DNA of 43,057 nt from Patescibacteria group bacterium (GTDB lineage: Bacteria > Patescibacteriota > Microgenomatia > Levybacterales > UBA12049). This document shows, piece after piece, positions 1-11,512 of this stretch. The notes under the pieces were generated by a model that saw only the letters and a program-made list of their open reading frames with translations, was not told the origin of the DNA and ran no database searches. The stretch covers positions 1-43,057 of the forward strand of contig DATKGO010000070.1 in NCBI GenBank assembly GCA_035510695.1. The letters run 5' to 3'. Both the position numbers and the translations under genes were made by a program. Positions within the stretch are counted from its first letter, which is position 1. Every line of letters starts with the position of its first letter.

Positions 1-367
1 TGCTGTAGTCGTACCAAATCTTTCTTGCGTTTTGTTCGGCAGTAAGTTTATCTATCTTTATTCCATTGAGTAGGTACTTGTCATTCGTTCTGTAAGCAGT
101 TAGAGCTTCAACACAAGAGACATAGGTATTCCATTTTTCAACAAAGCCAATTTGATCGGCGATAGATTTTTGTCTCATACCATTTTTTAATGTTTCGTAC
201 ATCTGGTGCATTGCATCAAGTGCGCTAATAGCTTCGTAGAGCACTTTCTTTCCATCATGTGAAGAAGTTGTTAATTTGTCGAGATAGATTGAGCGTAAAC
301 AACTATACGAAGCCTTTGCGTGTCTTTTTATAGATTTTAGTGTTTCAAGATTGTCGTTGTAATTCAT
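1..367 (-). CDS. Hypothetical protein, N-terminal part only (gene runs off the left edge)
   Basis: ATG at 367-365 with an open frame down to position 1 (my translation: MNYNDNLETLKSIKRHAKASYSCLRSIYLDKLTTSSHDGKKVLYEAISALDAMHQMYETLKNG...). It is absent from the ORF track because no stop falls inside the window. Same strand as the macro-like ORF and 47 nt downstream of it. Confidence 0.5.
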   Translation of the reverse strand, partial: MNYNDNLETLKSIKRHAKASYSCLRSIYLDKLTTSSHDGKKVLYEAISALDAMHQMYETLKNGMRQKSIADQIGFVEKWNTYVSCVEALTAYRTNDKYLLNGIKIDKLTAEQNARKIWYDYS

Positions 368-414
368 TTATTTATTAATCTTAAATATTGCCTTGCATCT
401 TCCATAAGCAATTT

Positions 415-996
415 TTATCTATAGAGCGTTATTTCTTCCAGTGATGTATTATTATACTCCCTTGATACCCCAATCATGATATTCATGATTTCATCCTCAC
501 TAAGTATTTTCAAAGCCTCTTTGTTAAAGATGCGTGTAATAAAATCATTTATCATATCCTTTTTGCGAAAGTGCTTCTTTATAATAGGAATTGCTATAGT
601 TTTGACATTGTAGAGCGTAGCAAGCGTAAAAGCTGCACGTGTTGCTTGATGAAGAGTAACCGAATCAAGTATCTCGTCAGGGCTATCGTGATCCTCGTAA
701 GGTAGGAAGATAAGATTAGTTACTGGAAGTCCATAAGATTTCGTAATCACCGCATGACCTAGCTCAATATGTCCTATTCCAGATAATTCTTTTAAAAGAT
801 GCACCTCGCATTCTTTTCGTTTTTCCCGTTCTTCCTTACTTATTTTTTTATAGCTATAATCCGTATCGGAACCATAGGCCAGATATTGAAGTATCCGATT
901 GCTTTTTTTGTACGTCAAGTCAGTGTCGCTTGGGACTACGACAGCATCTCCGGTGAATCGTGAAATACTACCTGAGCCTAGAATTATTTTAGGCAT
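415..996 (-). CDS. Degenerate macro-domain-like protein (function uncertain)
   Basis: Segment order resembles macro domains: GSISRFTGDAVVVPSDTDL (cf. GDIT..DAIVNAAN), ELGHAVITKSYGLPVTNLIFLPY (cf. G.a.iT.g..L....ViH.vgP), VKTIAIPII (cf. siAFPaIstG). The Gly-rich phosphate loops are missing. Recognition is by eye only. Confidence 0.35.
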   Translation of the reverse strand: MPKIILGSGSISRFTGDAVVVPSDTDLTYKKSNRILQYLAYGSDTDYSYKKISKEEREKRKECEVHLLKELSGIGHIELGHAVITKSYGLPVTNLIFLPYEDHDSPDEILDSVTLHQATRAAFTLATLYNVKTIAIPIIKKHFRKKDMINDFITRIFNKEALKILSEDEIMNIMIGVSREYNNTSLEEITLYR

Positions 997-1025
997 AAAA
1001 ATATAATAGCAGAAGATTTACTCAC

Positions 1026-1499
1026 TTACTTTGGTATAGGTACCACATACCAAGTGCTTCCCACTTTTTCAGATAAATCATTTGCCTGTTTTACAAGCTG
1101 GTTATAGCTGGCAATATCAGTCTTGTACTCATTTACCATTGTATTGTAATCATCAACATGAGTATTATATTTATCCGTATTATTAGTTGCCAGTTCTTGA
1201 TTCATTGCTGATTTTTCCCTCGTTATATTAGATTCCAAAGCATCGATGGCGGTATTTTTCGTTTGAAGCTCTTGCTTTATAATATCAAGTTTACTTTGAT
1301 CTCCTGAATGCCACAGATTCTGAAGTCCGATAAAAACTACATTGGCTACTACAAAGAAAACTATAACTAGAATAAAACCTACTATCTTCGCTAGGTAATT
1401 GTTGGACGAAGATCGTGAGGTACTAAAATTACTAGTGTCATACATCGGTGAACCATCAGGAAGACGTACTCCTGGATTATCTTTATTTTGAGATGTCAT
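1026..1499 (-). CDS. Single-pass membrane protein with an N/Q/K-rich coiled-coil ectodomain
   Basis: Hydrophobic segment IVGFILVIVFFVVANVVFIGL, followed by heptad-like polar sequence. Lies in an operon between the DUF805 and macro-like ORFs. Confidence 0.6.
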   Translation of the reverse strand: MTSQNKDNPGVRLPDGSPMYDTSNFSTSRSSSNNYLAKIVGFILVIVFFVVANVVFIGLQNLWHSGDQSKLDIIKQELQTKNTAIDALESNITREKSAMNQELATNNTDKYNTHVDDYNTMVNEYKTDIASYNQLVKQANDLSEKVGSTWYVVPIPK

Positions 1500-1518
1500 A
1501 TTTTAGTTTATTGTTAAA

Positions 1519-2373
1519 CTATTGAACGTTTGCGCAGTTAGAAATGCAACAAGCACCATTTCCTAGATATTTTCCTCCATTATCTTCACACCTATTTCTT
1601 GAATCCGTTTCTTGCTGTTGTTGCTGTAAAGTATTATTTATATTATCTAACTGATCTTGCATGTCTGAGTTATCAGGCGTAGATTGTGTGTCTTGAATAT
1701 TTTGGGTATTTTCTTCGGTATTTTGGGTTGATTGCTCAATTTTCTTAAGCGTTGCAGCATTATCGCGTTGCTGTTGAGGAAGGAAAAGCACAAAATAATA
1801 TGCGATAGAAAGAGCAATTGTAATAAGGCATAAGCAGATAATAATTAGAAAAAGTATTTTAACTTTAGATACAGGTTTTTTATCCTTTATAACATTCTTG
1901 TTTAAGTTATCTATGACTGGCAGTATGCATGAATTGGATTTTTTCTCACCAGAAATTGATAAATTTAAAATATCAGCTGGGAATCTAATCTTTTGACTAG
2001 GCTTACTACCATACTTATTGTCACTTTGATGCCCATGCCCAAAATATAGACAAAAATATAAATATATATTTACGAATGGAACAAGTAATAAAAGGGAAGA
2101 CCATGCTGACCAGCCTAAGTCATGTAGTCTACGCACAATAAGAGAATATGAAAAAATAATTGGTAATAGAAAAGCCACTAAATAAAGTACTACAGACATT
2201 CCGCAAATAGGATAATTATAATTATTAGGATAATTGCAGGAGCCAGAAGTTATAGAGCTTATTATTTCCACAATAACAATGCTGCACATGGAGAGAGAAA
2301 GATAAAACAATAATCCAAGTAGATAATTTCTTCTGTTAATTCTACCTTTAAATAAATTTACTATATATTTCAT
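1519..2373 (-). CDS. DUF805-family membrane protein with an extra TM helix, a Q/N-rich coil and a Cys-rich C-terminus
   Basis: DUF805 hallmarks: GRINRRNYLLG near the N-terminus and RRLHDLGWSAW...VPFVN...NKYGSKP. I trimmed the start to the ATG at 2373 (MKYIVNLFKGRINRR). The 2508 start in the ORF track is a TTG inside a GC-rich structured region. Confidence 0.8.
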   Translation of the reverse strand: MKYIVNLFKGRINRRNYLLGLLFYLSLSMCSIVIVEIISSITSGSCNYPNNYNYPICGMSVVLYLVAFLLPIIFSYSLIVRRLHDLGWSAWSSLLLLVPFVNIYLYFCLYFGHGHQSDNKYGSKPSQKIRFPADILNLSISGEKKSNSCILPVIDNLNKNVIKDKKPVSKVKILFLIIICLCLITIALSIAYYFVLFLPQQQRDNAATLKKIEQSTQNTEENTQNIQDTQSTPDNSDMQDQLDNINNTLQQQQQETDSRNRCEDNGGKYLGNGACCISNCANVQ

Positions 2374-2375
2374 AC

Positions 2376-2499
2376 AAAAAGCTCTCACCAGCGACGAATC
2401 ACTCCGCCTACCACACTTTCGCGTGATAGCCTCGACGGCGCTCTGGTAAGAGCTTACTTCCGTCGAGGTCTTTCTGCCATGCCCGCAATTACTTGCGGG
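2376..2499 (-). promoter_or_regulatory. Candidate cis-regulatory structured RNA (riboswitch- or attenuator-like leader) of the DUF805 gene
   Basis: A GC-rich island in AT-rich DNA. On the minus strand it forms CCCGCAA-GUAA-UUGCGGG (2499-2482), CCUCGACGG/CCGUCGAGG (2468-2460 with 2438-2430) enclosing GCUCU-UACC-AGAGC (2453-2440), and UAUCACGC-GAAA-GUGUGGUA (2428-2409). An alternative 11-bp helix, GCUCUUACCAG (2453-2443) with CUGGUGAGAGC (2391-2381), is followed by U5 and then GU-AUG. The G-U pairs and GNRA loops exist only on the minus-strand transcript. Confidence 0.55.
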
Positions 2500-2579
2500 T
2501 TTAGGCAATTAAATTGTTGAGTATAGAATACCAGAAATTAAGTGGTATTGGAAGCATTTTCACAGGTACCCTGTGTTTT

Positions 2580-2906
2580 TTAACTGTTGCCTTCGATCAT
2601 CCCCTTATATCGGTGCTTTCTATATTCAAGCCTGAGGCAAATTCTGCATCCGATTTGGCTACTAATAGGATTTCTATAAATTATTCCGACTCTATGATTA
2701 CATGTGGGACAAGAAAACCAATACCGCAAGCCGTTGAATCGTGTCTTTGTGGTTAATAAATTAAATTTAAGACCCATAGCCTCAATTTGAGTCTGTAATG
2801 TTTGTTGTTTTACTTCCTTATTAACCCGGCGAACAATATCATCAATATTTATTTTTTGACATTGCTCCACTAAATTATTATTTCCGAAATCGTATGGCTT
2901 TATCAT
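2580..2906 (-). CDS. Small Zn-ribbon protein (CPTC...CRIC)
   Basis: Two CxxC pairs (CPTCNHRV...GCRIC). Its start overlaps the upstream ORF stop by 4 nt. Confidence 0.6.
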   Translation of the reverse strand: MIKPYDFGNNNLVEQCQKINIDDIVRRVNKEVKQQTLQTQIEAMGLKFNLLTTKTRFNGLRYWFSCPTCNHRVGIIYRNPISSQIGCRICLRLEYRKHRYKGMIEGNS

Positions 2907-3493
2907 TTATTATTTGTTTGCACTAATTGGTTTTGCCCAACAATTGCAGTTTGCGTTTTTATATTTACCTCAAGCATAGGTTGCTTAATCATTTTTAATG
3001 TCTGCAAGGAATTTAAATAGTGACGGTTTGCTCTATCGAGTTCTTTACTCAAGACTTCTAAGCGCCTAATGTTTATATCGCTATAACTCTCGCGATCTAA
3101 ATTCGCAGTTATATTCCTTTGGATTGCCAGTGTACGAATAAAGTTTATTGCTACTAACTCCGCAGTAGCCTTCTCACTAGGAGTTCTACAGTCATATTCT
3201 TTTTGCAAATTACGACTAAAATCAATTGAAAAGGTTCTATATATTTCGGATACAGAGTTAAGCATCAAACTTCCATTATCAAATTCAAATAAACTCATCG
3301 CCTTGTAAATGTTAGTTTCAGAAGAAAATGCTTTTTCTTTACCCCTATTTTTTTCAGCTTCTACCTTTGCTTTTTTTAACACTTCGTCAGTATCATAGCC
3401 TGTATGAAAGTTTTCAAAGGCCTTCTTGTAGTCATCCAGAGTTAATGGGATTGTAGATAGACTCTTCTGGTCAGCCTTAGTCGCAGACTCCAT
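2903..3493 (-). CDS. Hypothetical protein (element-encoded)
   Basis: 196-aa ORF translationally coupled to the downstream ORF. I recognised no motif. Confidence 0.55.
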   Translation of the reverse strand: MESATKADQKSLSTIPLTLDDYKKAFENFHTGYDTDEVLKKAKVEAEKNRGKEKAFSSETNIYKAMSLFEFDNGSLMLNSVSEIYRTFSIDFSRNLQKEYDCRTPSEKATAELVAINFIRTLAIQRNITANLDRESYSDINIRRLEVLSKELDRANRHYLNSLQTLKMIKQPMLEVNIKTQTAIVGQNQLVQTNNK

Positions 3494-3537
3494 AGGCTTA
3501 TTTTGTATTTTCTTCTTTTTGCTGTTAATTTTATTAA

Positions 3538-4953
3538 TTATAGTCGCACCTCCTGTTCTGATATAAGAGATGGCTGTGAAGGTGTTTTCTCTATACCATC
3601 CCTAGTTTGTGTCCCACTGCTATAGGAGGACATAAAATCCGCAGTGTCTAATAAAAGAATGCTTCTAAACTTCTCATTTATTTTGTAATCAGTAGCGATT
3701 GCACCACTTCCCTTTACCTTTTCAAGGACTTTTAATGCCGTAAGTTCATCAAGTAGACGTCTTGAGGTTTTAATTGACCGATCGTCTGAGTCAGATAATT
3801 GTTTTGCTGTTACTGTCCCGCCCTGTTCTTTAATGGTTCTAAGGGCTTGTGAACGGTCAGCAGGCATAGAGGAAATAACAACCTCCTTGATAATAGAAAG
3901 CTCTTCGACGGTAACTTCATTCTTTCCAGCCACAAAAGCAAGATACTGAGCGAGTAGCATTATTTGCTGTACCGCTCTCCATGGCTCTTCAATCTGTACA
4001 TCGGACACCTCGTAATATTTGATTTCTTCTCCGGCTTCATTTTTAAATGTTGCTGACTGTAGAATAACAATTCCACGGCAGTTAGACATCAATTCTGCTG
4101 TAGTTCGCAGATATGCCTGTGCAGGCTTACTTAAAGGTTGTATGTTAAAGGATTTTTGAGTAAGTTGATGGAGATAGGACGAAACGTACAATCTTGCTTC
4201 CTTTTCAATTAACGAACGATTTGTGCTTGTAAATATGCTTTCATAACTCTTTTCAGCATCCCCATTACTTGTTGACGGCATACTGTAACAAAGAAAGCGT
4301 GCGCCAACCATGTTCATATACTGTGTATGCCTATTAAGCGTAGCTGGCGTAATACATCCCAATTGAGAAAATGCAGAGTTGTAGCTGATATTGCCACGTC
4401 TAGAGCTAAATTTGGTAAATTCTTTATCATAAATACCAACAAGATCACCTAAAAGTTTTTTAGTCATCTTCTCATCAAGGGAAAAAATAGAAGTCCAGTC
4501 TTTGATGATAAGACATTTTTTATTAATAAGTGGCAAAAGGTCGTATACTTTCTGTGATTTTGTTACTCGTTCACCGGATATAAAAGCGTTCTGCGTAAGG
4601 TTATCTAAATAATAGGTATTTTCAGCATTTTTTATAAGCCGTACCAAGTCTGTTTTCCCTGACGAAGGCACTCCCACGAGAAGCATCCACAACATAAGAG
4701 GATTGGGGAAATAACATGATACTCCAACTGCTAAGATAATTTTAAGCCCCATCTGCGCACTTGGTAATAATTCTATTACTTTATTTTCTACTTCTTGATA
4801 ATCAAGTGGCTGTGTCAACAATTGCTGTGATTTGGTTTTTTCCTCTTGACCTGCATCATTTGTGGTAATTTCTTGCAAATTTTTATCCTTTAGATTAAAA
4901 CCAAATTCCTCTTTCATCAATTCATCTACTGGTCGCGGGTTGTTATTATTCAT
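3538..4953 (-). CDS. P-loop NTPase, putative replicative helicase (SF3/D5-like) with a C-terminal winged-helix domain
   Basis: Walker A GVPSSGKTD and Walker B-like CLIIKDW. The C-terminal region (LRTIKEQGGTVTAKQLSDS...RRLLDELTALKVLEK) looks like a wHTH. Sits among phage/plasmid-type small genes. Confidence 0.5.
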   Translation of the reverse strand: MNNNNPRPVDELMKEEFGFNLKDKNLQEITTNDAGQEEKTKSQQLLTQPLDYQEVENKVIELLPSAQMGLKIILAVGVSCYFPNPLMLWMLLVGVPSSGKTDLVRLIKNAENTYYLDNLTQNAFISGERVTKSQKVYDLLPLINKKCLIIKDWTSIFSLDEKMTKKLLGDLVGIYDKEFTKFSSRRGNISYNSAFSQLGCITPATLNRHTQYMNMVGARFLCYSMPSTSNGDAEKSYESIFTSTNRSLIEKEARLYVSSYLHQLTQKSFNIQPLSKPAQAYLRTTAELMSNCRGIVILQSATFKNEAGEEIKYYEVSDVQIEEPWRAVQQIMLLAQYLAFVAGKNEVTVEELSIIKEVVISSMPADRSQALRTIKEQGGTVTAKQLSDSDDRSIKTSRRLLDELTALKVLEKVKGSGAIATDYKINEKFRSILLLDTADFMSSYSSGTQTRDGIEKTPSQPSLISEQEVRL

Positions 4954-5164
4954 ATTGTTCCCAAACTTTCTTTTTTAATTCCTCATATGCTACTCGTTTG
5001 CTTTCAGAAATTGTATAATACAATTCTCGCTTCTTAGCGTCCTGTTCTTGGAAGAAGACTATATGCCAATCAACAGCGTCATTAAATGCCTTTTCTAGTT
5101 TCCCAAGTATTTCAATAACTTCATCTACTCCTAGTTGTCTCAACTTAACTTTATTTTCATCCAT
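4946..5164 (-). CDS. Small hypothetical protein (element-encoded)
   Basis: 72-aa helical ORF that overlaps the helicase start by 8 nt. Confidence 0.5.
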   Translation of the reverse strand: MDENKVKLRQLGVDEVIEILGKLEKAFNDAVDWHIVFFQEQDAKKRELYYTISESKRVAYEELKKKVWEQYE

Positions 5165-5165
5165 A

Positions 5166-5402
5166 TTAAATTGTTGAATATATTCTTGTTTTTAATTCAT
5201 TTATATTTTCTATTAATGCTCGCGCCTCAACTGATATTTTCCTGTTCCAATAATGGCTGATGGTCTCTTGAGCTTTATCTTCTGGATCTGCAAAAACAAA
5301 TATTGCGAACTTAGGATTTTCCCGTTCCAATCTCAAAAGTGAGAAGCCTGCGGTTTTGAGGACTACTGCTTGATAAAAATCGTTGAGTTTAAATTCTTTC
5401 AT
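5166..5402 (-). CDS. DUF5659-like small protein
   Basis: The pattern FYQAVVLKTAGFSLLRLERENPKFAIFVFADPEDKAQETISHYWNRK...LKTRI matches my memory of the DUF5659 family, which is common in phage and CPR mobile DNA. Confidence 0.5.
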   Translation of the reverse strand: MKEFKLNDFYQAVVLKTAGFSLLRLERENPKFAIFVFADPEDKAQETISHYWNRKISVEARALIENINELKTRIYSTI

Positions 5403-5538
5403 TTTTATTATATTTCTCTTTCTTAAATTGCTCGATTAATTCCCTTACCTTTCGATCTTTGACCCTCTCATATAGCCGATTCAATGCTTCGGGTAAAATT
5501 TCACCCACACTCTTAAATTTTGAATTTTCATTTTCCAT
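5389..5538 (-). CDS. Small hypothetical protein
   Basis: I trimmed the start to the ATG at 5538 (MENENSKFKSVGEIL...). The start in the ORF track (5577) is a TTG. Confidence 0.4.
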   Translation of the reverse strand: MENENSKFKSVGEILPEALNRLYERVKDRKVRELIEQFKKEKYNKNERI

Positions 5539-5682
5539 ATTGAAGCCATTATCAAATACTGCGCGGCGGGATGGCAAAAATTAGGTCTGGGTTTTTGAGG
5601 CTAAAAAATAACAGTTTTATTTTGAAAAAAGACTATTTTAATCTGGCGATGGATTTTCGAGGCTGGTTTTAGTTAGCGTTTT

Positions 5683-6867
5683 TTAAGTGGTCTGTTTAAT
5701 GTCCAGTCTATAAAAATATTTGAATCCATCCTTGTAGGACTCTATCTTCAGGACTGCACTTAATCCGTGCTTTTTGATTGTATCAAGGGTGTTGCGCTTC
5801 AAAGTAGAGAGATCTCCCGTATCAACATCTTTTTTTAAAGTTTTGGTGTCTTTTGGTTTTCCATCCCCCAGACACAACAAAAGTTTTCTTTGCTTCTTTG
5901 GAAATTTAAGATAATCAAGTATTCCTCTTACGGTTTGCTTAGGAGTTAGAGAACTAGAAAGCGGAGTTTGAATGCCAACTACTCTTGACGACTCAACCTG
6001 CGGTGTCATCTCCGGTGTCTTTTCATATGTCTTTTCTAATACCCCGTATAAGTATTTGAACTCGTGAGTAAGAGTGATAGTAGTTTTGGGGTCATAAAAA
6101 AATTCCTCTTTATCCTTAACACTTTCCCCAATAGAACCCGTGGGCTTATTCGGATCATCTGTGGGAGGTGTTCTACCTAATTCCTTAAAAGTTGAAACTA
6201 TTTTTCTATTTTCAAGATTGATAATAAGTTTTTTTGCTTCTTCATGATTAACCTTCTTCCTTTTAAATAACTCTAGGGGTATTACAAATGTATCTCTTCC
6301 CTCCAACTCCTGCGTAGCGTGAAGCCATTTCACAACATTCCATAGTCTATCCGTGAAATACTTTGTCTGTCCTTTTAGCCAGTTCTCGTAGAAATTTCTC
6401 TTTTCATCTGCAATATCCGATTGTGTTTTGTTTGCATTTATAAACCCCTGCGCTTTATCCCGAAAAACCAGAATTATTTCAGCGTTCTTATAAGGCGAGG
6501 TGTTCTTAGTCCAAGCATAAGTTGCTTGCGCAACCTCATTTAATTTATCTGGCAGTGATTTGCCCTTATAGCCATTGATAATCTTATCCCAATAAACCAA
6601 ATAATGAGCCGTCATGATTCTTACTTCTTCTCCTTCTCTAGGCACATTTGAAATTGTTTTAAGGTCGGACATTAAATACATTTTTGTCCTATCCATTACA
6701 TAGCCATAAAAATTAGGAAATAAAGAAGTTGATTCGGGGTGGATAATACCGGCCTTATCTGCTTTTGCAATTATGGCAAGTATTAAATTATTATCTTTCG
6801 GAGCCTCAGAAAGTATATTTTCTAATAACTGCTTGCAATCTTTGACTAATAAATTTTCATCTTGCAT
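5683..6867 (-). CDS. Hypothetical 394-aa protein with a possible C-terminal wHTH (candidate replication-initiation or regulatory protein)
   Basis: Long ORF, first in the minus-strand block and divergent from the HTH/recombinase genes. The C-terminal segment KQRKLLLCLGDGKPKDTKTLKKDV..LSTLKRNTLDTIKKHGL is HTH-like. No family recognised. Confidence 0.5.
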   Translation of the reverse strand: MQDENLLVKDCKQLLENILSEAPKDNNLILAIIAKADKAGIIHPESTSLFPNFYGYVMDRTKMYLMSDLKTISNVPREGEEVRIMTAHYLVYWDKIINGYKGKSLPDKLNEVAQATYAWTKNTSPYKNAEIILVFRDKAQGFINANKTQSDIADEKRNFYENWLKGQTKYFTDRLWNVVKWLHATQELEGRDTFVIPLELFKRKKVNHEEAKKLIINLENRKIVSTFKELGRTPPTDDPNKPTGSIGESVKDKEEFFYDPKTTITLTHEFKYLYGVLEKTYEKTPEMTPQVESSRVVGIQTPLSSSLTPKQTVRGILDYLKFPKKQRKLLLCLGDGKPKDTKTLKKDVDTGDLSTLKRNTLDTIKKHGLSAVLKIESYKDGFKYFYRLDIKQTT

Positions 6868-6900
6868 ATTACATTTTCTTATGTTAACTTAGTATAAAGT

Positions 6901-7122
6901 ATGGTAAATAGTAAATCAACCACATTCTCTCCTTCTGATCCTACATCTTGGTCGTCTCTGCTTACTGTCAGTCAAGTTGCGCAAATTTTAAATCTTAGCC
7001 CGTGGACACTGAGACAGTGGGACATAAAAATGAAGTTAGTGGCTTTAAGAGTAGGAAATAGAAAAGATCGTAGGTATAAAAAGGAAGATATTCTGACAAT
7101 AGTTGAAAAAGGATTGAAGTAA
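6901..7122 (+). CDS. Excisionase/MerR-like helix-turn-helix protein (possible recombination directionality factor)
   Basis: LTVSQVAQILNLSPWTLRQWD...RVGNRKDRRYKKEDI resembles the HTH_17/excisionase family. Lies immediately upstream of the recombinase. Confidence 0.6.
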   Translation: MVNSKSTTFSPSDPTSWSSLLTVSQVAQILNLSPWTLRQWDIKMKLVALRVGNRKDRRYKKEDILTIVEKGLK

Positions 7123-7150
7123 AAAATTATTCAATCCTTACAAATGTAAT

Positions 7151-8722
7151 ATGGAAAATAAATTTAAAATAAGAGCCGTAATTTACGCCCGTGTTTCAAC
7201 CAAGGAACAGGCGGAAGATAAAATATCTATTCCTTCTCAAATAAATGACTCTAGAAAAACGATCGCAGAGCGTGGATGGGAATTAGTTCACGAACCATAT
7301 GCTGATGAAGGCATAAGTGGACATTTGCTTGAAGAAAGACGGGGGTTACAAAGCCTTCTTCAAGATGCAAGGCAACACGCATTTGATTTAGTAGTGGTAA
7401 AAGATTTCGATAGGTTTGCGCGCAATCGTGCGGCTGCAACTATTGTGAGAGAGGAATTGAAAGAATTATTTATTCAAACTTATGCGCTCAATACACCGGT
7501 TGAACCAAAAGATCCTAATAAATACGACCCTACCGATGATGATTTAGCAATCATGGTTGAAGGTTTCTCAGATGCAAATTCTGAAATAGAGCGAAATAAA
7601 ATAAGGAGAAGAATGATGATGGGTAAAGTAGCAGTCGCAAAATCAGGTAAAATTCCAAACAACGTACCTTACGGGTACAAAATTATCAGATCTATTGACG
7701 ATCACGGCAAAGTTCACAGAGAAATAATCGTAGATGAGGAGCAGGCAAAAAATGTGCGCTGGATATTTGATCAATATATTAACGGCAAAGGTGCTTTGAA
7801 TATCGCCTTCCAACTAACTGAAAAAGGTATTAAGCCTATTAGAGGTCAATTTTGGAGAGCGCAAGCAATCAAATACATACTTCAAAATAGAACCTATACG
7901 GGAAAAGTGTTATGGGGATGGAGACACGCTGAATACAAGAAAAATCAACAAAGAAAACTAAGAGGACATAAAGGCATTATAGAAAATGGAGAACACAAAG
8001 CAATTATTCCGGAGCCTACTTTTGAACTCGCACAAAAAGAAAAGAAAATTAGAGGAAGCTCACAAAAAGGGAGAGCGCAATTAAGTAGGGGCTTACTTAC
8101 CGGAATTGCAAAATGTATTCGTTGCAAATCAGGAGTTACATATCTTACTCGCCATCATAAAAGAAAGAAGAAAAACCCAAAGTGGAACGATACAACAACC
8201 CACGAATATTTGTGTGGAGGCTACAAATACAGTGGGATTTGTCAAAGAAGAGTTATGAGTGCAACGCGACTTGAAGAATTTGTTCTCAATCAAATCAGAA
8301 ATTTAATCAACAATCCACTGATAAGGGAAAAGTTAATCTTTGATAGAAGTGTCAACATTTCGGAAGGCTTTGAAGACGACTACAAACATGCCGCTAAAAT
8401 GCTCAACGACATACAAAGAAGACGAGGACGGGTAAAAGAGGCTTTCGAAGCAGGAATTGATTCCTTAGAGGTCTACGGGGCTAATATAAGACGACTTGAT
8501 GATGAAGAGTCAAAGTACCATGCGGTAGCCGATGATTATCAAATTCGCATTCAGAAATTTAATGAACGCAGAGAAGAGCTGGAAAAGTTCACTAAATCTT
8601 TGGAAGACTTCAATACTTTATGGGATAATGCAGATTTTCAAGAAAAGAAACATTTCCTGCGTACAATTTTAAAAGAAGTTAGAGCCGGTAATGGAAAAAT
8701 AGAAATTGATTTTCGCCTCTAA
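7151..8722 (+). CDS. Large serine recombinase (integrase)
   Basis: N-terminal resolvase catalytic domain (AVIYARVSTKEQ, DLVVVKDFDRFARN). This is followed by a recombinase domain, a Zn-ribbon (CIRCKSG...CGGYKYSGIC) and a C-terminal coiled coil. Length is 523 aa. Confidence 0.9.
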   Translation: MENKFKIRAVIYARVSTKEQAEDKISIPSQINDSRKTIAERGWELVHEPYADEGISGHLLEERRGLQSLLQDARQHAFDLVVVKDFDRFARNRAAATIVREELKELFIQTYALNTPVEPKDPNKYDPTDDDLAIMVEGFSDANSEIERNKIRRRMMMGKVAVAKSGKIPNNVPYGYKIIRSIDDHGKVHREIIVDEEQAKNVRWIFDQYINGKGALNIAFQLTEKGIKPIRGQFWRAQAIKYILQNRTYTGKVLWGWRHAEYKKNQQRKLRGHKGIIENGEHKAIIPEPTFELAQKEKKIRGSSQKGRAQLSRGLLTGIAKCIRCKSGVTYLTRHHKRKKKNPKWNDTTTHEYLCGGYKYSGICQRRVMSATRLEEFVLNQIRNLINNPLIREKLIFDRSVNISEGFEDDYKHAAKMLNDIQRRRGRVKEAFEAGIDSLEVYGANIRRLDDEESKYHAVADDYQIRIQKFNERREELEKFTKSLEDFNTLWDNADFQEKKHFLRTILKEVRAGNGKIEIDFRL

Positions 8723-8791
8723 ATCAGGCTATTTGCCGCCATACTTTCGTTGCCACTCAGCATAATTGTTATAATATAAACTATAGGCTTC

Positions 8792-11512
8792 TTACTCCTG
8801 CGGCGTATGAGGTTCCCTATTTAAGTGGCACTTCTTCCACTTCTTTCCACTTCCACACCAACAGGGATCGTTGCGACCCAACTGTTTACTACTATTTACA
8901 GTTTGCGGCTTTTCCTTTTTCGCTTTCACTTTCCTAGCATCTTCACTCAATTCGCCTTCAGGAGTATTAGTCACCATCCGTGGTTGTGGAACCGACTCTT
9001 GCTGCGGTGCGGTAGGAGTTGGAGCTTGCTGCACCTGAATTTTATAAATTCTATGCACAATTTCATCATCAATCGAAACTAACAATTGTTCAAATAATCT
9101 AAAACCTTCATTTTTATACTCAACTAATGGATCTCTCTGCGCGTAGCCGCGCAAACCAATACCTTGACGCAAATTATCCATCACATCCAGATGATTCATC
9201 CACAGCGTATCAATCACGTTTAAACTCACACCGCGTTCGATTTGCTGGCTCAACGGCTCACCAAACATTTCCACTCGCTTTAGATAAACATTTCGGCACA
9301 TATTCGACAAAAACTCTATTTTCTGCTCATTCAAAGGATACTGTTCAAGCTGTTTCACCAATTGCTGCTGGGAGGCCTGATCAAAAGGAATAATCGTCTG
9401 CAGATCGGCAATAATCTTCTCGTTTACCGATAAATCCGTCACACTCGCTAAGCTGACAATACTAGACAATGATTGCTGAATTTTCTGCAAAATCTCTTCA
9501 CGGATAGCAGCTCCTTCTTTTGCTTCCAAAACCTCTCGTCTTCGCGAATAAATAATCTCACGCTGTTTATTTAAAACATCATCATATTCGACCAAATGTT
9601 TACGGTTATCAAAATAAAATCCTTCTACTTTCACCTGCGCATTTTCAATTGCTTTGGAGACAAACTGATGCGTCAAAGGTACGTCTTCCGGCATATTAAA
9701 ACGCGTCATAATGCCGGCAATTTTATCGCCGCCGAAGAGCCGCATGATTTCGTCGTCCAACCCAACGAAAAACTGCGACACGCCGGGATCACCCTGACGG
9801 CCTGAACGACCACGCAGCTGATTATCAATCCGGCGCGACTCATGCCGTTCCGTTCCTATAACGTACAAACCGCCTAAACGCACAACCTCGTCGTGTTCTT
9901 TCTTCCATTTCTCCAACTCTTTTTGATAGGCTTTTTCATTCTCTGTGGGATTTGGCTGTTCACCGCCAAGTACAATATCAACGCCTCGGCCTGCCATGTT
10001 CGTAGCAATTGTCACCGCGCCTTTTTTACCGGCTTGCGCGATAATTTCCGCTTCTTTCAAATGATTTTTGGCATTCAAAACCTTATGCGGAATTTTTCTC
10101 CGTTTCAATAATTCCGAAACAATTTCGTTTTTCTCAATAGAAGTGGTGCCGACCAAAACCGGCTGACCTGTTTTATATACTTTTTCAATTTCCGCCACTA
10201 CCGCGGAAAATTTCGCCCGTCCGGTTTTATAAATGATATCGGCCCGATCGTCTCTAACCATGGGATTATTCGTCGGGATTACAACCACATCCAGATTGTA
10301 GATTTTATGAAATTCTTCCGATTCGGTAACGGCTGTCCCGGTCATACCGGCCAATCTTCCATAAAGTCGGAAATAATTCTGTAAAGAAACCGTCGCCATC
10401 GTCTTGGATTCTTTTTGAATCGGAACATTTTCTTTCGCTTCAATCGCCTGATGAATTCCTTCCGACAACCGCCGACCCACCATTAAACGGCCGGTAAATT
10501 CATCTACTAAAATGACCTCATTATCACGGACAATATAATCTTTTTCCCGATGAAAAAGCGTCCTGGCTTTTAACGCCGCTTCCAAATGATAAACCGTGTC
10601 AAAATCCGTCTCATAAATATTTTTTATTCCATACAGTTTTTCAATTTTTCCGATTCCGTGATCGGTCAAATGAACTGTCCGCATTTTTTCATCCACCTTA
10701 TAATCAATTTCCGAAATTAATTTATCTACAATTTGCGCGTATTCATAATAGCGCTGCGACGGAGCTTCATCCGGCGCTGAAATAATGTGCGGTGTTCTCG
10801 CCTCATCAATGAGAACCGAATCAACCTCGTCAACAATGGCATAATAATTACTGCGCTGGACTACCTGCTCGATAGTTTGCGCCATGTTATCACGTAAATA
10901 ATCAAAACCAAATTCCGAATTAATCCCGTAAACCACATCACACTGATAAGCTTCTTTTCTGCTGATTAATTTTAAGTGTGCTAAACGTGGATCCGCGGCA
11001 TTTTCATCGATGAAATCCCGCTCATATTTGAAAGATTGCTCGCTGATAATCGAGGCAATAGTAATACCAAGTAGAGAAAAAATCGGCCCCATCCAGCCGG
11101 CATCACGTCGAGCCAAATAATCGTTGACTGTCACCAAATGCACGCCCTTGCCGGTCAATGCATGCAAATACAACGCGGGAATAGCGGCTAAGGTTTTTCC
11201 TTCTCCGGTTTTCTGTTCGGCGATTTTACCACGCGCCAAAGCAATCGCCGCCATAATCTGCACGTCATAATGATACAAACCAATGGTTCTCCTGGCTGCT
11301 TCACGCACCAGAGCAAAAGCTTCCGGCAAAATACTGTCCAGACTCTCGCCTTTGGCTATCCTGTCTTTAAACTCCTGCGTCTTTTTGGGGAAATCTTTAT
11401 CTTTATATTTTTTAACGACAGCACCCAAATCGTTAATTTGGTTAACAATCGGCTGCATGCGTCCGACTTCGCGTTCATTGGAATCTAATAATTTATTTAA
11501 AAGAGGTAACAT
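8792..11512 (-). CDS. secA: Preprotein translocase ATPase SecA
   Basis: Walker A MKTGEGKT equivalent (QKTGEGKTL), DEVDS motif, TNMAGRGVDI, and a C-terminal Zn finger CWCGSGKKWKKCH. Length is 906 aa. Confidence 0.97.
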   Translation of the reverse strand: MLPLLNKLLDSNEREVGRMQPIVNQINDLGAVVKKYKDKDFPKKTQEFKDRIAKGESLDSILPEAFALVREAARRTIGLYHYDVQIMAAIALARGKIAEQKTGEGKTLAAIPALYLHALTGKGVHLVTVNDYLARRDAGWMGPIFSLLGITIASIISEQSFKYERDFIDENAADPRLAHLKLISRKEAYQCDVVYGINSEFGFDYLRDNMAQTIEQVVQRSNYYAIVDEVDSVLIDEARTPHIISAPDEAPSQRYYEYAQIVDKLISEIDYKVDEKMRTVHLTDHGIGKIEKLYGIKNIYETDFDTVYHLEAALKARTLFHREKDYIVRDNEVILVDEFTGRLMVGRRLSEGIHQAIEAKENVPIQKESKTMATVSLQNYFRLYGRLAGMTGTAVTESEEFHKIYNLDVVVIPTNNPMVRDDRADIIYKTGRAKFSAVVAEIEKVYKTGQPVLVGTTSIEKNEIVSELLKRRKIPHKVLNAKNHLKEAEIIAQAGKKGAVTIATNMAGRGVDIVLGGEQPNPTENEKAYQKELEKWKKEHDEVVRLGGLYVIGTERHESRRIDNQLRGRSGRQGDPGVSQFFVGLDDEIMRLFGGDKIAGIMTRFNMPEDVPLTHQFVSKAIENAQVKVEGFYFDNRKHLVEYDDVLNKQREIIYSRRREVLEAKEGAAIREEILQKIQQSLSSIVSLASVTDLSVNEKIIADLQTIIPFDQASQQQLVKQLEQYPLNEQKIEFLSNMCRNVYLKRVEMFGEPLSQQIERGVSLNVIDTLWMNHLDVMDNLRQGIGLRGYAQRDPLVEYKNEGFRLFEQLLVSIDDEIVHRIYKIQVQQAPTPTAPQQESVPQPRMVTNTPEGELSEDARKVKAKKEKPQTVNSSKQLGRNDPCWCGSGKKWKKCHLNREPHTPQE

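Follow-up and report, generated by a model that had tools for sequence, protein, structure and literature searches.

The DNA analysed here (the window) is the whole of contig C70, 43,057 bp long, from the 1.18-Mb genome (G000; 91 contigs, 37.7% G+C) of a bacterium of the Patescibacteria group, order Levybacterales. The subject of this work is its left end, where a gene for a large serine recombinase (LSR) and a group of mostly small genes adjoin secA, and which we propose to be part of a mobile element integrated in that gene. The LSR gene is intact and encodes 523 aa (7151-8722, plus strand). It is preceded by the gene for a 73-aa helix-turn-helix (HTH) protein of the HTH_17/MerR type (6901-7122, plus strand), and both are divergent from a tightly packed minus-strand block (2580-6867). 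On the right, secA (8792-11512), present in single copy (one match in the genome), and then serS flank the region. On the left, the region is truncated at base 1, because the window spans the entire contig.

The LSR contains the domains Resolvase (PF00239, 2.8e-26), Recombinase (PF07508, 7.8e-20) and Zn_ribbon_recom (PF13408, 9.9e-8), and its long helical C-terminal region probably holds a coiled-coil insert. Among the PHROGs it matched the integrase family phrog_95 (2.2e-89), and phrog_125 (DNA invertase) matched its N-terminal part. Nine loci with LSR homologues (L054-L062) were retrieved with the window LSR from a scan of one genome per prokaryote species; their records are labelled Daviesbacteria, Woesebacteria, Gottesmanbacteria, Roizmanbacteria or Microgenomates. 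The records of L054 and L058 are titled 'uncultured Gammaproteobacteria'. The title of L054 looks wrong, because its genome (G127) was placed in the same family as G000, and the gene content of L058 is similar to that of the Microgenomates loci. The LSR homologues are 71-81% identical to that of the window, and at all nine loci the LSR gene is arranged tail-to-tail with secA and has HTH and DUF5659 genes on its upstream side. In an alignment of the LSRs of 10 elements, the mean column identity was 86% and the serine of the RVST motif (S16), which we take to be the catalytic nucleophile, was invariant. The window LSR retains all invariant residues of the aligned family.

The HTH protein matched HTH_17 (5.8e-7) and MerR_1, as well as excisionase-type PHROGs, and its gene lies directly upstream of the LSR gene in 9/9 related loci. 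Seven copies, when aligned, were 56-71% identical, with 24 invariant columns. It is a candidate recombination directionality factor or regulator; a prediction of its complex with LSR residues 300-523 yielded no verdict either way (score 0.00). A 21-nt inverted repeat (86% complementary) is found on either side of the HTH gene, at 6856-6876 and 7142-7162, its arms covering the start codons of the gene for a 394-aa protein and of the LSR gene. It could be an operator pair, although an inverted repeat of this length in two copies may also be a chance product.

The right end of the region was located by comparing SecA endings in 11 relatives within the family of G000 with 11 occupied sites, namely the window, the same-genus genome G002 and the nine retrieved loci. 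In 10 of the 11 family relatives SecA ends in ...CGSGKKWKKCH followed by 2-6 native residues and a stop codon (YPQMS, YPNLG, YPN, WPQLA, LSSDLA and others). In the window, in G002 (the eleventh relative) and in the nine retrieved loci, KKCH is followed by [LI]NREP instead. The host proteins themselves are well diverged: SecA of eight of the nine hosts is 54-63% identical to that of the window, and the alignment with that of L054 falls into two segments, one at 73% and the other at 55%. Comparison of occupied and empty sites thus divides secA into a native part (8825-11512, minus strand), which contains all SecA Pfam domains including SEC-C, and an element-derived 3' end (8792-8824, minus strand) coding for LNREPHTPQE plus stop, so that the final ten codons (8795-8824) and the stop are element DNA. 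The secA-proximal att junction, an unstranded feature at 8811-8836, consists of an element arm (8811-8824), the first 13 nt of which (8811-8823) are identical in all 11 occupied sites, and of a 12-nt core (8825-8836) encoding K-K-C-H. Judging from these alignments, the crossover is within the core, that is, within codons of the SEC-C zinc finger, and therefore the insertion is in secA and not downstream of it.

In five of the nine retrieved loci and in G002, the secA frame continues beyond [LI]NREP through ...EAYNL[YF]..NN..EW.RRYGKK and a stop, as far as the LSR stop codon. In the window this replacement tail is interrupted by an in-frame TAA (8792-8794), a position that is CAA in G002, and the frame reads ...QE, stop, EAYSLYYNNYAEWQRKYGGK, stop. 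The vestigial tail codons beyond the TAA occupy 8729-8791 on the minus strand. Since the secA frame runs through the corresponding stretch in relatives, the 69-nt gap between the LSR gene and secA (8723-8791) is a remnant of an element-encoded SecA tail. At four of the 11 occupied sites other than the window (L054, L055, L059 and L062) the tail is decayed or deleted. Over its conserved 20-codon block, variation was found at the third position of 16 of the 20 codons, at the first position of 8 and at the second of 11. The prevalence of third-position variation across the elements of different lineages suggests that the tail extension has been translated and selected. At an unoccupied secA (L007, in genome G004), a second KKCH-coding core followed by YPNIP and a stop was seen 68 nt past the stop codon, possibly a scar left by a previous integration or by an element since deleted.

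Additional upstream DNA was retrieved for five relatives in order to locate the left junctions. L059 and L062, from related hosts, share the flanks on both sides and differ in the cargo between them. At their left edge, read in the secA sense, the conserved arm and the KKCH core are followed by native-type endings (WPN and WPD, each with a stop), and outside it lie housekeeping genes including those for radical SAM, GlmS, FtsH and TsaD proteins. The same series of arm, core and tail was found in L057 (YPKIA), L058 (FPKKAP) and L054 (MNSDLDR), each ending in a stop; in L055 it is degenerate. In six relatives, therefore, both junctions are on one contig, with the cores in direct orientation, and five of them have a displaced native tail. 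The junction-to-junction distances are about 9.6, 12.7, 13.3, 16.8, 17.1 and 18.4 kb. In the cases with a readable remnant, the native codons displaced by the crossover are the last 3-11. The far junctions of L056, L060 and L061 were not found within 10 kb upstream.

When the left ends of two of the complete relatives were compared with the whole of G000 by blastn, the best match was on contig C30, at 1003-1046 (86-88% identity, E 6e-7). At this position, WPLAA and a stop come after the partner arm and the core; this is the displaced native ending (KKCH-WPLAA), and further along are genes matching those downstream of secA in the genomes G024 and G001. A scan of G000 with the 17-mer arm, allowing 4 mismatches, had given about 20 weak matches, one of them at C30:1006-1022, and this was credited only after the agreement with blastn. 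The element of G000 thus is a segment that, on sequence comparison, runs leftward from about 8830, off the contig, to about C30:1035. Since C70 and C30 do not overlap (no overlap of at least 10 nt was found between their starts), it measures no less than 9.9 kb, an unassembled stretch lying between the two contigs.

These results change the boundaries proposed in an initial sequence-only reading of the window. It had placed the insertion just downstream of secA, the beginning of the housekeeping DNA at 8792 and one att site in the 69-nt gap. Instead, the crossover lies within the SEC-C codons, the last ten secA codons and the stop (8792-8824) belong to the element, and the core is about 35-45 nt further right, at 8825-8836. 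A shared core with an arm is present at both ends, in secA and on C30, and is not in the gap. Of its two proposals for the left boundary, a position left of the window agrees with the far junction on C30, and a position near an RNA element around 2500 has to be abandoned, because that RNA (LOOT, described below) is internal to such elements. The empty sites that it proposed to look for were found, both as native SecA endings in 10/11 family relatives and as secA flanks lacking the element in six relatives.

The distribution of the element was examined in the same genomes. The serS-secA synteny is kept in 6/6 relatives examined, two of them of the same genus, and in these the element ORFs (queried from 80 aa upwards) are absent beside secA. 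The 26-nt junction signature was present in 3 of the 245 genomes of the host's order (G000, G002 and G127), and a reversed-pattern control gave 0. The junctions of the other retrieved loci fit the signature pattern, yet only these three genomes matched; eight of the nine loci are therefore probably outside the window's order. In all nine loci the LSR is closer to that of the window than SecA is, and the closest LSR (81%) belongs to a host whose SecA is only 54% identical. On the basis of such comparisons, the element is probably mobile, or was so recently. The patchy signature and the element-free secA flanks agree with the integrated, LSR-borne mobile element of the sequence-only reading.

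Public sequencing runs were examined as assembled contigs only, in which rare forms drop out. A contig of the probable source run spans 6727-10606, across the junction, and since it bridges it, the integration is not an assembly artefact. Contigs from three runs of other studies also contain the identical sequence at low depth; this indicates only that the strain persists. A 151-nt contig of a related organism matches only from 8824 rightwards, at 90% identity, as the secA of any relative would. The contigs of the public runs break at window positions 1, about 5215 and about 6720. In the source run the two inner breaks are at 5211-5221 and 6717-6727, and the piece between them, which holds the DUF5659 gene, a 62-aa ORF and most of the gene for the 394-aa protein, has a mean depth of 19.6 as compared to about 33. 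The lower depth hints at a co-existing population variant of the 5211-6727 segment.

One gene of the minus-strand block encodes a 471-aa protein (3538-4953) with no Pfam match, for which 215 homologues were detected. Its Walker A motif (GVPSSGKT) contains residues P96, K100 and T101, invariant in 24 homologues. The AlphaFold2 (AF2) model had a mean predicted local distance difference test (pLDDT) score of 80.4 and shows a C-terminal helix-helix-helix-strand-strand unit resembling a winged helix. The top Foldseek matches of the model were MCM subunits (E 4.5e-9 for MCM5), and VIA-align gave a Z of 16.3 with MCM (root-mean-square deviation, rmsd, 4.9; 294 residues aligned), with RavA and BchI within 1 Z unit. 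The helicase Cch of the staphylococcal cassette chromosome SCCmec (5dgk) aligned with a Z of 11.9 at 11% identity, and SaPIbov1 Rep with a Z of 10.6. A fold closest to MCM combined with Walker A and B motifs places the protein among the MCM-like (helix-2-insert clade) AAA+ ATPases, and it is a candidate replicative or initiator helicase according to the predicted structure. With a profile of 24 homologues, no solved structure was matched at an E of 1 or below.

One of the homologues is named 'phage/plasmid primase' by its source, and many of them, 57-78% identical, are fused N-terminally to Prim-Pol (PF09250) and PriCT_1 (PF08708) or to Toprim. The MCM protein of a Bacillus cereus prophage is an example of these phage/plasmid primase-helicases. 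The 471-aa protein resembles their C-terminal parts at the identities given above and, unlike them, has no primase domain; the same is true of a second copy in G000 and of many other homologues. The helicase protein is present in 10 of the 245 genomes of the order, and further copies lie beside LSRs in three other genomes. Directly upstream of the helicase gene, and overlapping its start, is a 72-aa ORF (4946-5164, minus strand) that is a conserved partner of it, as a 50% identical copy is found directly upstream of the second helicase of G000.

This second helicase is part of a related element on contig C2 (L001; 2004-7374), which also includes an HTH_3 gene, small ORFs and the copy of the 72-aa ORF. 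The C2 helicase is 77% identical to that of the window at the amino acid level and adjoins a different LSR (5780-7363). Because the 3' end of this LSR gene overlaps a tRNA-Gln(ttg) gene (7303-7374, minus strand), integration of the C2 element in a tRNA gene is suggested. At the position occupied by the helicase gene, other secA-targeting elements have O-like initiators or a DnaG-type primase, and since the replication genes differ at the same position, integration and replication modules have evidently been shuffled between elements.

The 394-aa protein is encoded at the head of the block (5683-6867, minus strand). It has no Pfam match, and a Pfam search with 23 of its homologues gave only a weak winged helix. 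Homologues match residues 1-160, 160-290 or 300-390 separately, indicating a mosaic of three modules. In the AF2 model the N-terminal domain had a pLDDT above 88, and residues from about 305 to 392 could be superposed on winged helices of the OmpR/PhoB type (76 residues aligned, best Z 8.5, rmsd 2.6). With the whole model, Foldseek found no match at an E of 0.001 or better, and an Atlas search with residues 1-160 found nothing usable. The model makes this protein a candidate DNA-binding regulator or initiator. A protein of about 265 aa encoded at the same position in relatives was considered as its counterpart and rejected, as no similarity was found.

The remaining genes of the block, all on the minus strand, are small. 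A DUF5659 protein (5166-5402; PF18903, 5e-12) was found in 9/9 related loci at 52-67% identity and belongs to the conserved core of the secA-targeting elements. A 62-aa ORF with a TTG start (5389-5577) is known from the ORF list; at its position, six of the nine related loci have an ORF of about 60 aa (family F7) with no detected similarity to it. Downstream of the helicase gene are the genes for a 196-aa orphan (2903-3493) and for a 108-aa Zn-ribbon-like protein with two Cys pairs in its translation and no Pfam match (2580-2906). Both have homologues in locus L036 of genome G079, 40% and 44% identical, respectively, where the order P-loop gene, 196-aa gene, Zn-ribbon gene and LSR is kept; the 196-aa orphan therefore travels with the helicase gene. 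The gene content had been described correctly in the sequence-only reading: the LSR with its resolvase, recombinase and Zn-ribbon domains, the excisionase-like HTH gene, the tight divergent block, the 394-aa orphan with a winged HTH-like tail, the DUF5659-like protein, the P-loop helicase-like protein with a C-terminal winged HTH and the Zn-ribbon protein were all confirmed at the coordinates given. The minimal replication module that it postulated is likewise in keeping with the MCM-like helicase and its primase-fused homologues.

The part of the element to the left of the block appears to be accessory cargo and also lies on the minus strand. Between the two is an RNA of the LOOT family (Rfam RF03000; 2393-2507), which covers the full model (1-121) with 81.7 bits as compared to a gathering threshold of 46.4 (E 5e-14) and thus belongs to the family. 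It is followed by the gene of a DUF805 multi-pass membrane protein (1519-2373; PF05656, 1.7e-19, with transmembrane-like windows), whose start is likely the ATG at 2371-2373, 19 nt past the RNA; a longer ORF with a TTG start would overlap the RNA. Then come the genes for a 157-aa protein that has a single hydrophobic segment, is otherwise coiled-coil-like and gave only sub-threshold Pfam matches (1026-1499), and for a 193-aa protein with a weak Macro domain (415-996; PF01661, E 6.5e-5, 23.3 bits as compared to a cut-off of 22). An orphan ORF of at least 122 aa with no Pfam match, its 3' end open off the left contig end (2-367), is counted inside the element because the far junction was found on C30. 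PADLOC detected no defence system among the 13 element proteins of the window, the 193-aa protein and the orphan ORF included.

In relatives, the corresponding variable segment contains genes for GmrSD, OLD-type AAA_15 plus TOPRIM proteins, Shedu SduA, SMODS and PD-(D/E)XK proteins, and for type I and Eco57I/MmeI-like restriction-modification systems. Defence genes of these types are not present in the cargo of the window.

The LOOT RNA is patchily distributed, with 17 loci (L037-L053) in 14 of 61 related genomes; G000 has two of these loci. At distances of up to 1.5 kb from the copies, serine or tyrosine recombinases were found at 4 loci and DUF5659 at 5 (at one by clustering only), and 4 further loci are near AbiV, restriction-modification genes, a SocA antitoxin or a ParB-methylase. 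One copy is inside the secA element of L059, and another is 1.2 kb from an LSR gene in genome G249. At 17/17 loci a same-strand ORF begins 16-103 nt after the RNA. A transmembrane or signal-like segment was seen in 16 of these 17 ORFs vs. 16 of 68 other ORFs of the same loci, which are not independent samples, and the encoded proteins are from unrelated families (DUF805, Imm_superinfect, tRNA_anti-like, DUF3761 and orphans). The membrane-type ORF directly downstream on the same strand suggests that LOOT may serve as a 5' leader and not as a small RNA of its own. The second copy of G000 (contig C41, 7666-7770, L038; 58.6 bits) is followed on the same strand by genes for a signal-peptide protein and a tRNA_anti-like OB-fold protein and, where the contig ends, by the beginning of a resolvase-domain gene. 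Compared with its close relative L062, L059 has a 564-nt insertion near the left end, made of LOOT (G245:C1:284996-285116) and a 103-aa Zn_ribbon_3 ORF with a hydrophobic stretch, which looks like a self-contained cassette.

The negative results on gene content concern two functions. Families of virion proteins (capsid, portal, terminase and tail) were matched neither in the window, by Pfam or PHROGs, nor among the scanned proteins of the relatives (53 by Pfam, 19 by PHROGs), in line with the statement of the sequence-only reading that virion genes are missing. Pfam families of relaxases, coupling proteins and type IV secretion were matched in none of these either; oriT was not searched. As the complete relatives measure only 9.6-18.4 kb, there is little room in them for virion or conjugation modules.

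Taken together, the data indicate that the window from position 1 to about 8830 is very probably the larger part of an integrated, non-viral and non-conjugative mobile element of a bacterium of the Microgenomates, within the Candidate Phyla Radiation (CPR), equipped with a secA-targeting LSR. This LSR combines a catalytic domain with its serine, the recombinase and zinc-ribbon domains, and an arm and 12-nt core that recur at the two junctions in G000 and in six relatives. It would act as an integrase performing attP x attB integration, joining attP with an attB made of the last secA codons, at the end of the SEC-C zinc finger (K-K-C-H). As known for LSRs in general, it would integrate alone, and the HTH_17 protein may direct or regulate excision. 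By integrating, the element would replace the secA ending with the [LI]NREP... codons, up to about 30 residues, and the native ending would be kept at the far junction. Because the element supplies replacement codons, the essential secA stays open and its zinc finger intact. The excised circle would be replicated by the MCM-like helicase, possibly with the 394-aa winged-helix protein as origin binder, and transfer might occur by a route outside the element, for instance by natural transformation or by means of a helper phage. Accessory cargo would make up the left part, with LOOT, the DUF805 and Macro-like proteins and the others, where relatives carry anti-phage defence. It is also conceivable, though in our opinion unlikely, that the element edits the Sec motor, tuning SecA with LOOT as a cis-regulatory leader so that the envelope proteins of the element are exported, for example for superinfection exclusion.

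Several points weigh against the interpretation as a mobile element of this kind. The replacement tail of G000 is truncated by an in-frame stop, and the central dinucleotide of the crossover was not pinned down. No primase is recognisable in the window. No origin was found either: iterons did not exceed chance, and scans for promoters and terminators gave counts at the level of shuffled sequence. Neither an excised circle nor a restored attB was seen in the assembled contigs of public runs, from which rare forms are dropped. The linkage of C70 to C30 would follow from sequence logic and synteny, the ends being on separate contigs and the middle missing. Finally, it is possible that a novel structural protein is present among the many ORFs of the relatives that belong to no family.

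Some of these points would also be expected if the element of G000 were an immobilised relic, once integrated and now unable to excise or replicate. In fact, besides the premature stop in the tail, the helicase lacks the primase domain carried by many homologues, the circular form was not observed and the tails at L054, L055, L059 and L062 are decayed or deleted. Against this explanation, which we consider unlikely, the LSR and HTH genes and all genes of the block are open, the LSR retains every family-invariant residue, and the conserved arms are kept at both att junctions. That the element belongs to a prophage, or is a phage satellite in need of a helper, with packaging or virion genes in the unassembled gap or provided by the helper, is very unlikely. 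Such an origin would fit the incompleteness of the G000 element, with its gap between contigs, the best PHROG family of the LSR (a phage integrase family), the phage-type O-like initiators of relatives, the presence of SaPIbov1 Rep among the fold matches of the helicase (Z 10.6) and an Sf6-type small-terminase-like ORF at one LOOT locus elsewhere. However, the six complete relatives have only 9.6-18.4 kb between their att junctions, their nameable cargo consists mostly of restriction or defence genes, no capsid, portal, terminase or tail family was matched in the scanned proteins, and a peptide-pattern search of a viral contig collection confirmed no relatives of the helicase. That the LSR is a domesticated invertase or resolvase working on nearby inverted sites is exceedingly improbable: serine recombinases do include invertases, and phrog_125 matches the N-terminal part, but the domain architecture is that of a complete LSR with its zinc ribbon, the arm has no inverted partner within 1-8791 (in the whole window, 6 matches vs. 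6.4 expected by chance), the cores are direct repeats flanking the whole element in six relatives, and segments in both orientations were not seen in assembled contigs.

The mobile element proposed here can be compared with known systems. Staphylococcal cassette chromosomes (SCC) are small elements that integrate and move by means of large serine recombinases (Ccr), their insertion site being the 3' end of rlmH/orfX. The phage SPbeta inserts in spsM by means of SprA and the skin element in sigK by means of SpoIVCA; in both cases the gene is disrupted and is restored by excision during development. As in the latter two, an LSR inserts site-specifically inside an ORF, with a small partner protein (here a candidate) controlling direction; unlike them, the insertion in secA affects only the very 3' end, the gene would be functional through element codons, and virion genes were not detected. 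By analogy, the closest counterpart is SCC/SCCmec. In both, an LSR inserts the element into the last part of a housekeeping gene and leaves the gene open, and both combine an LSR with a helicase operon without virion or conjugation genes, the helicase fold matching Cch with a Z of 11.9. In SCC, the replication operon lies beside the recombinase gene and includes an MCM-like/SaPI-Rep-like helicase whose C-terminal domain recognises the origin, according to a published study (PMC7581432). The differences are also clear. The target is secA and not rlmH, there is one recombinase gene and not a ccrAB pair, the hosts are CPR bacteria, and the recognisable cargo of relatives is phage defence and not antibiotic resistance. 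Moreover, the secA element replaces coding sequence of an essential gene, and its helicase has no detectable sequence relationship to Cch, the similarity being in the fold only. Because of the different target, the single recombinase and the lack of sequence homology to Cch, the element is not a member of the SCC family; it would be SCC-like in function, as far as excision, replication and transfer can be presumed from its genes.

To our knowledge, few mobile elements of CPR bacteria have been catalogued, and there are hardly any genetic tools for these organisms. Among the papers listed in literature searches, none linked a serine recombinase to secA in these bacteria. A recombinase family with sequence-defined att junctions, directed to a near-invariant stretch of an essential gene, is a candidate for the construction of integration vectors for Microgenomates, and the finding of copies at this site in Daviesbacteria, Woesebacteria, Gottesmanbacteria and Roizmanbacteria (as the genomes are labelled) implies that its natural host range is wide. 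The elements also show how GmrSD, OLD-type nucleases, restriction-modification systems, Shedu and SMODS could move between small genomes. The orphan LOOT RNA gains a genomic setting, in mobile elements and directly upstream of membrane-protein genes. Two features that deserve attention are the cassettes of LOOT with membrane-protein genes and the conserved, apparently coding extension that the element adds to the essential SecA.

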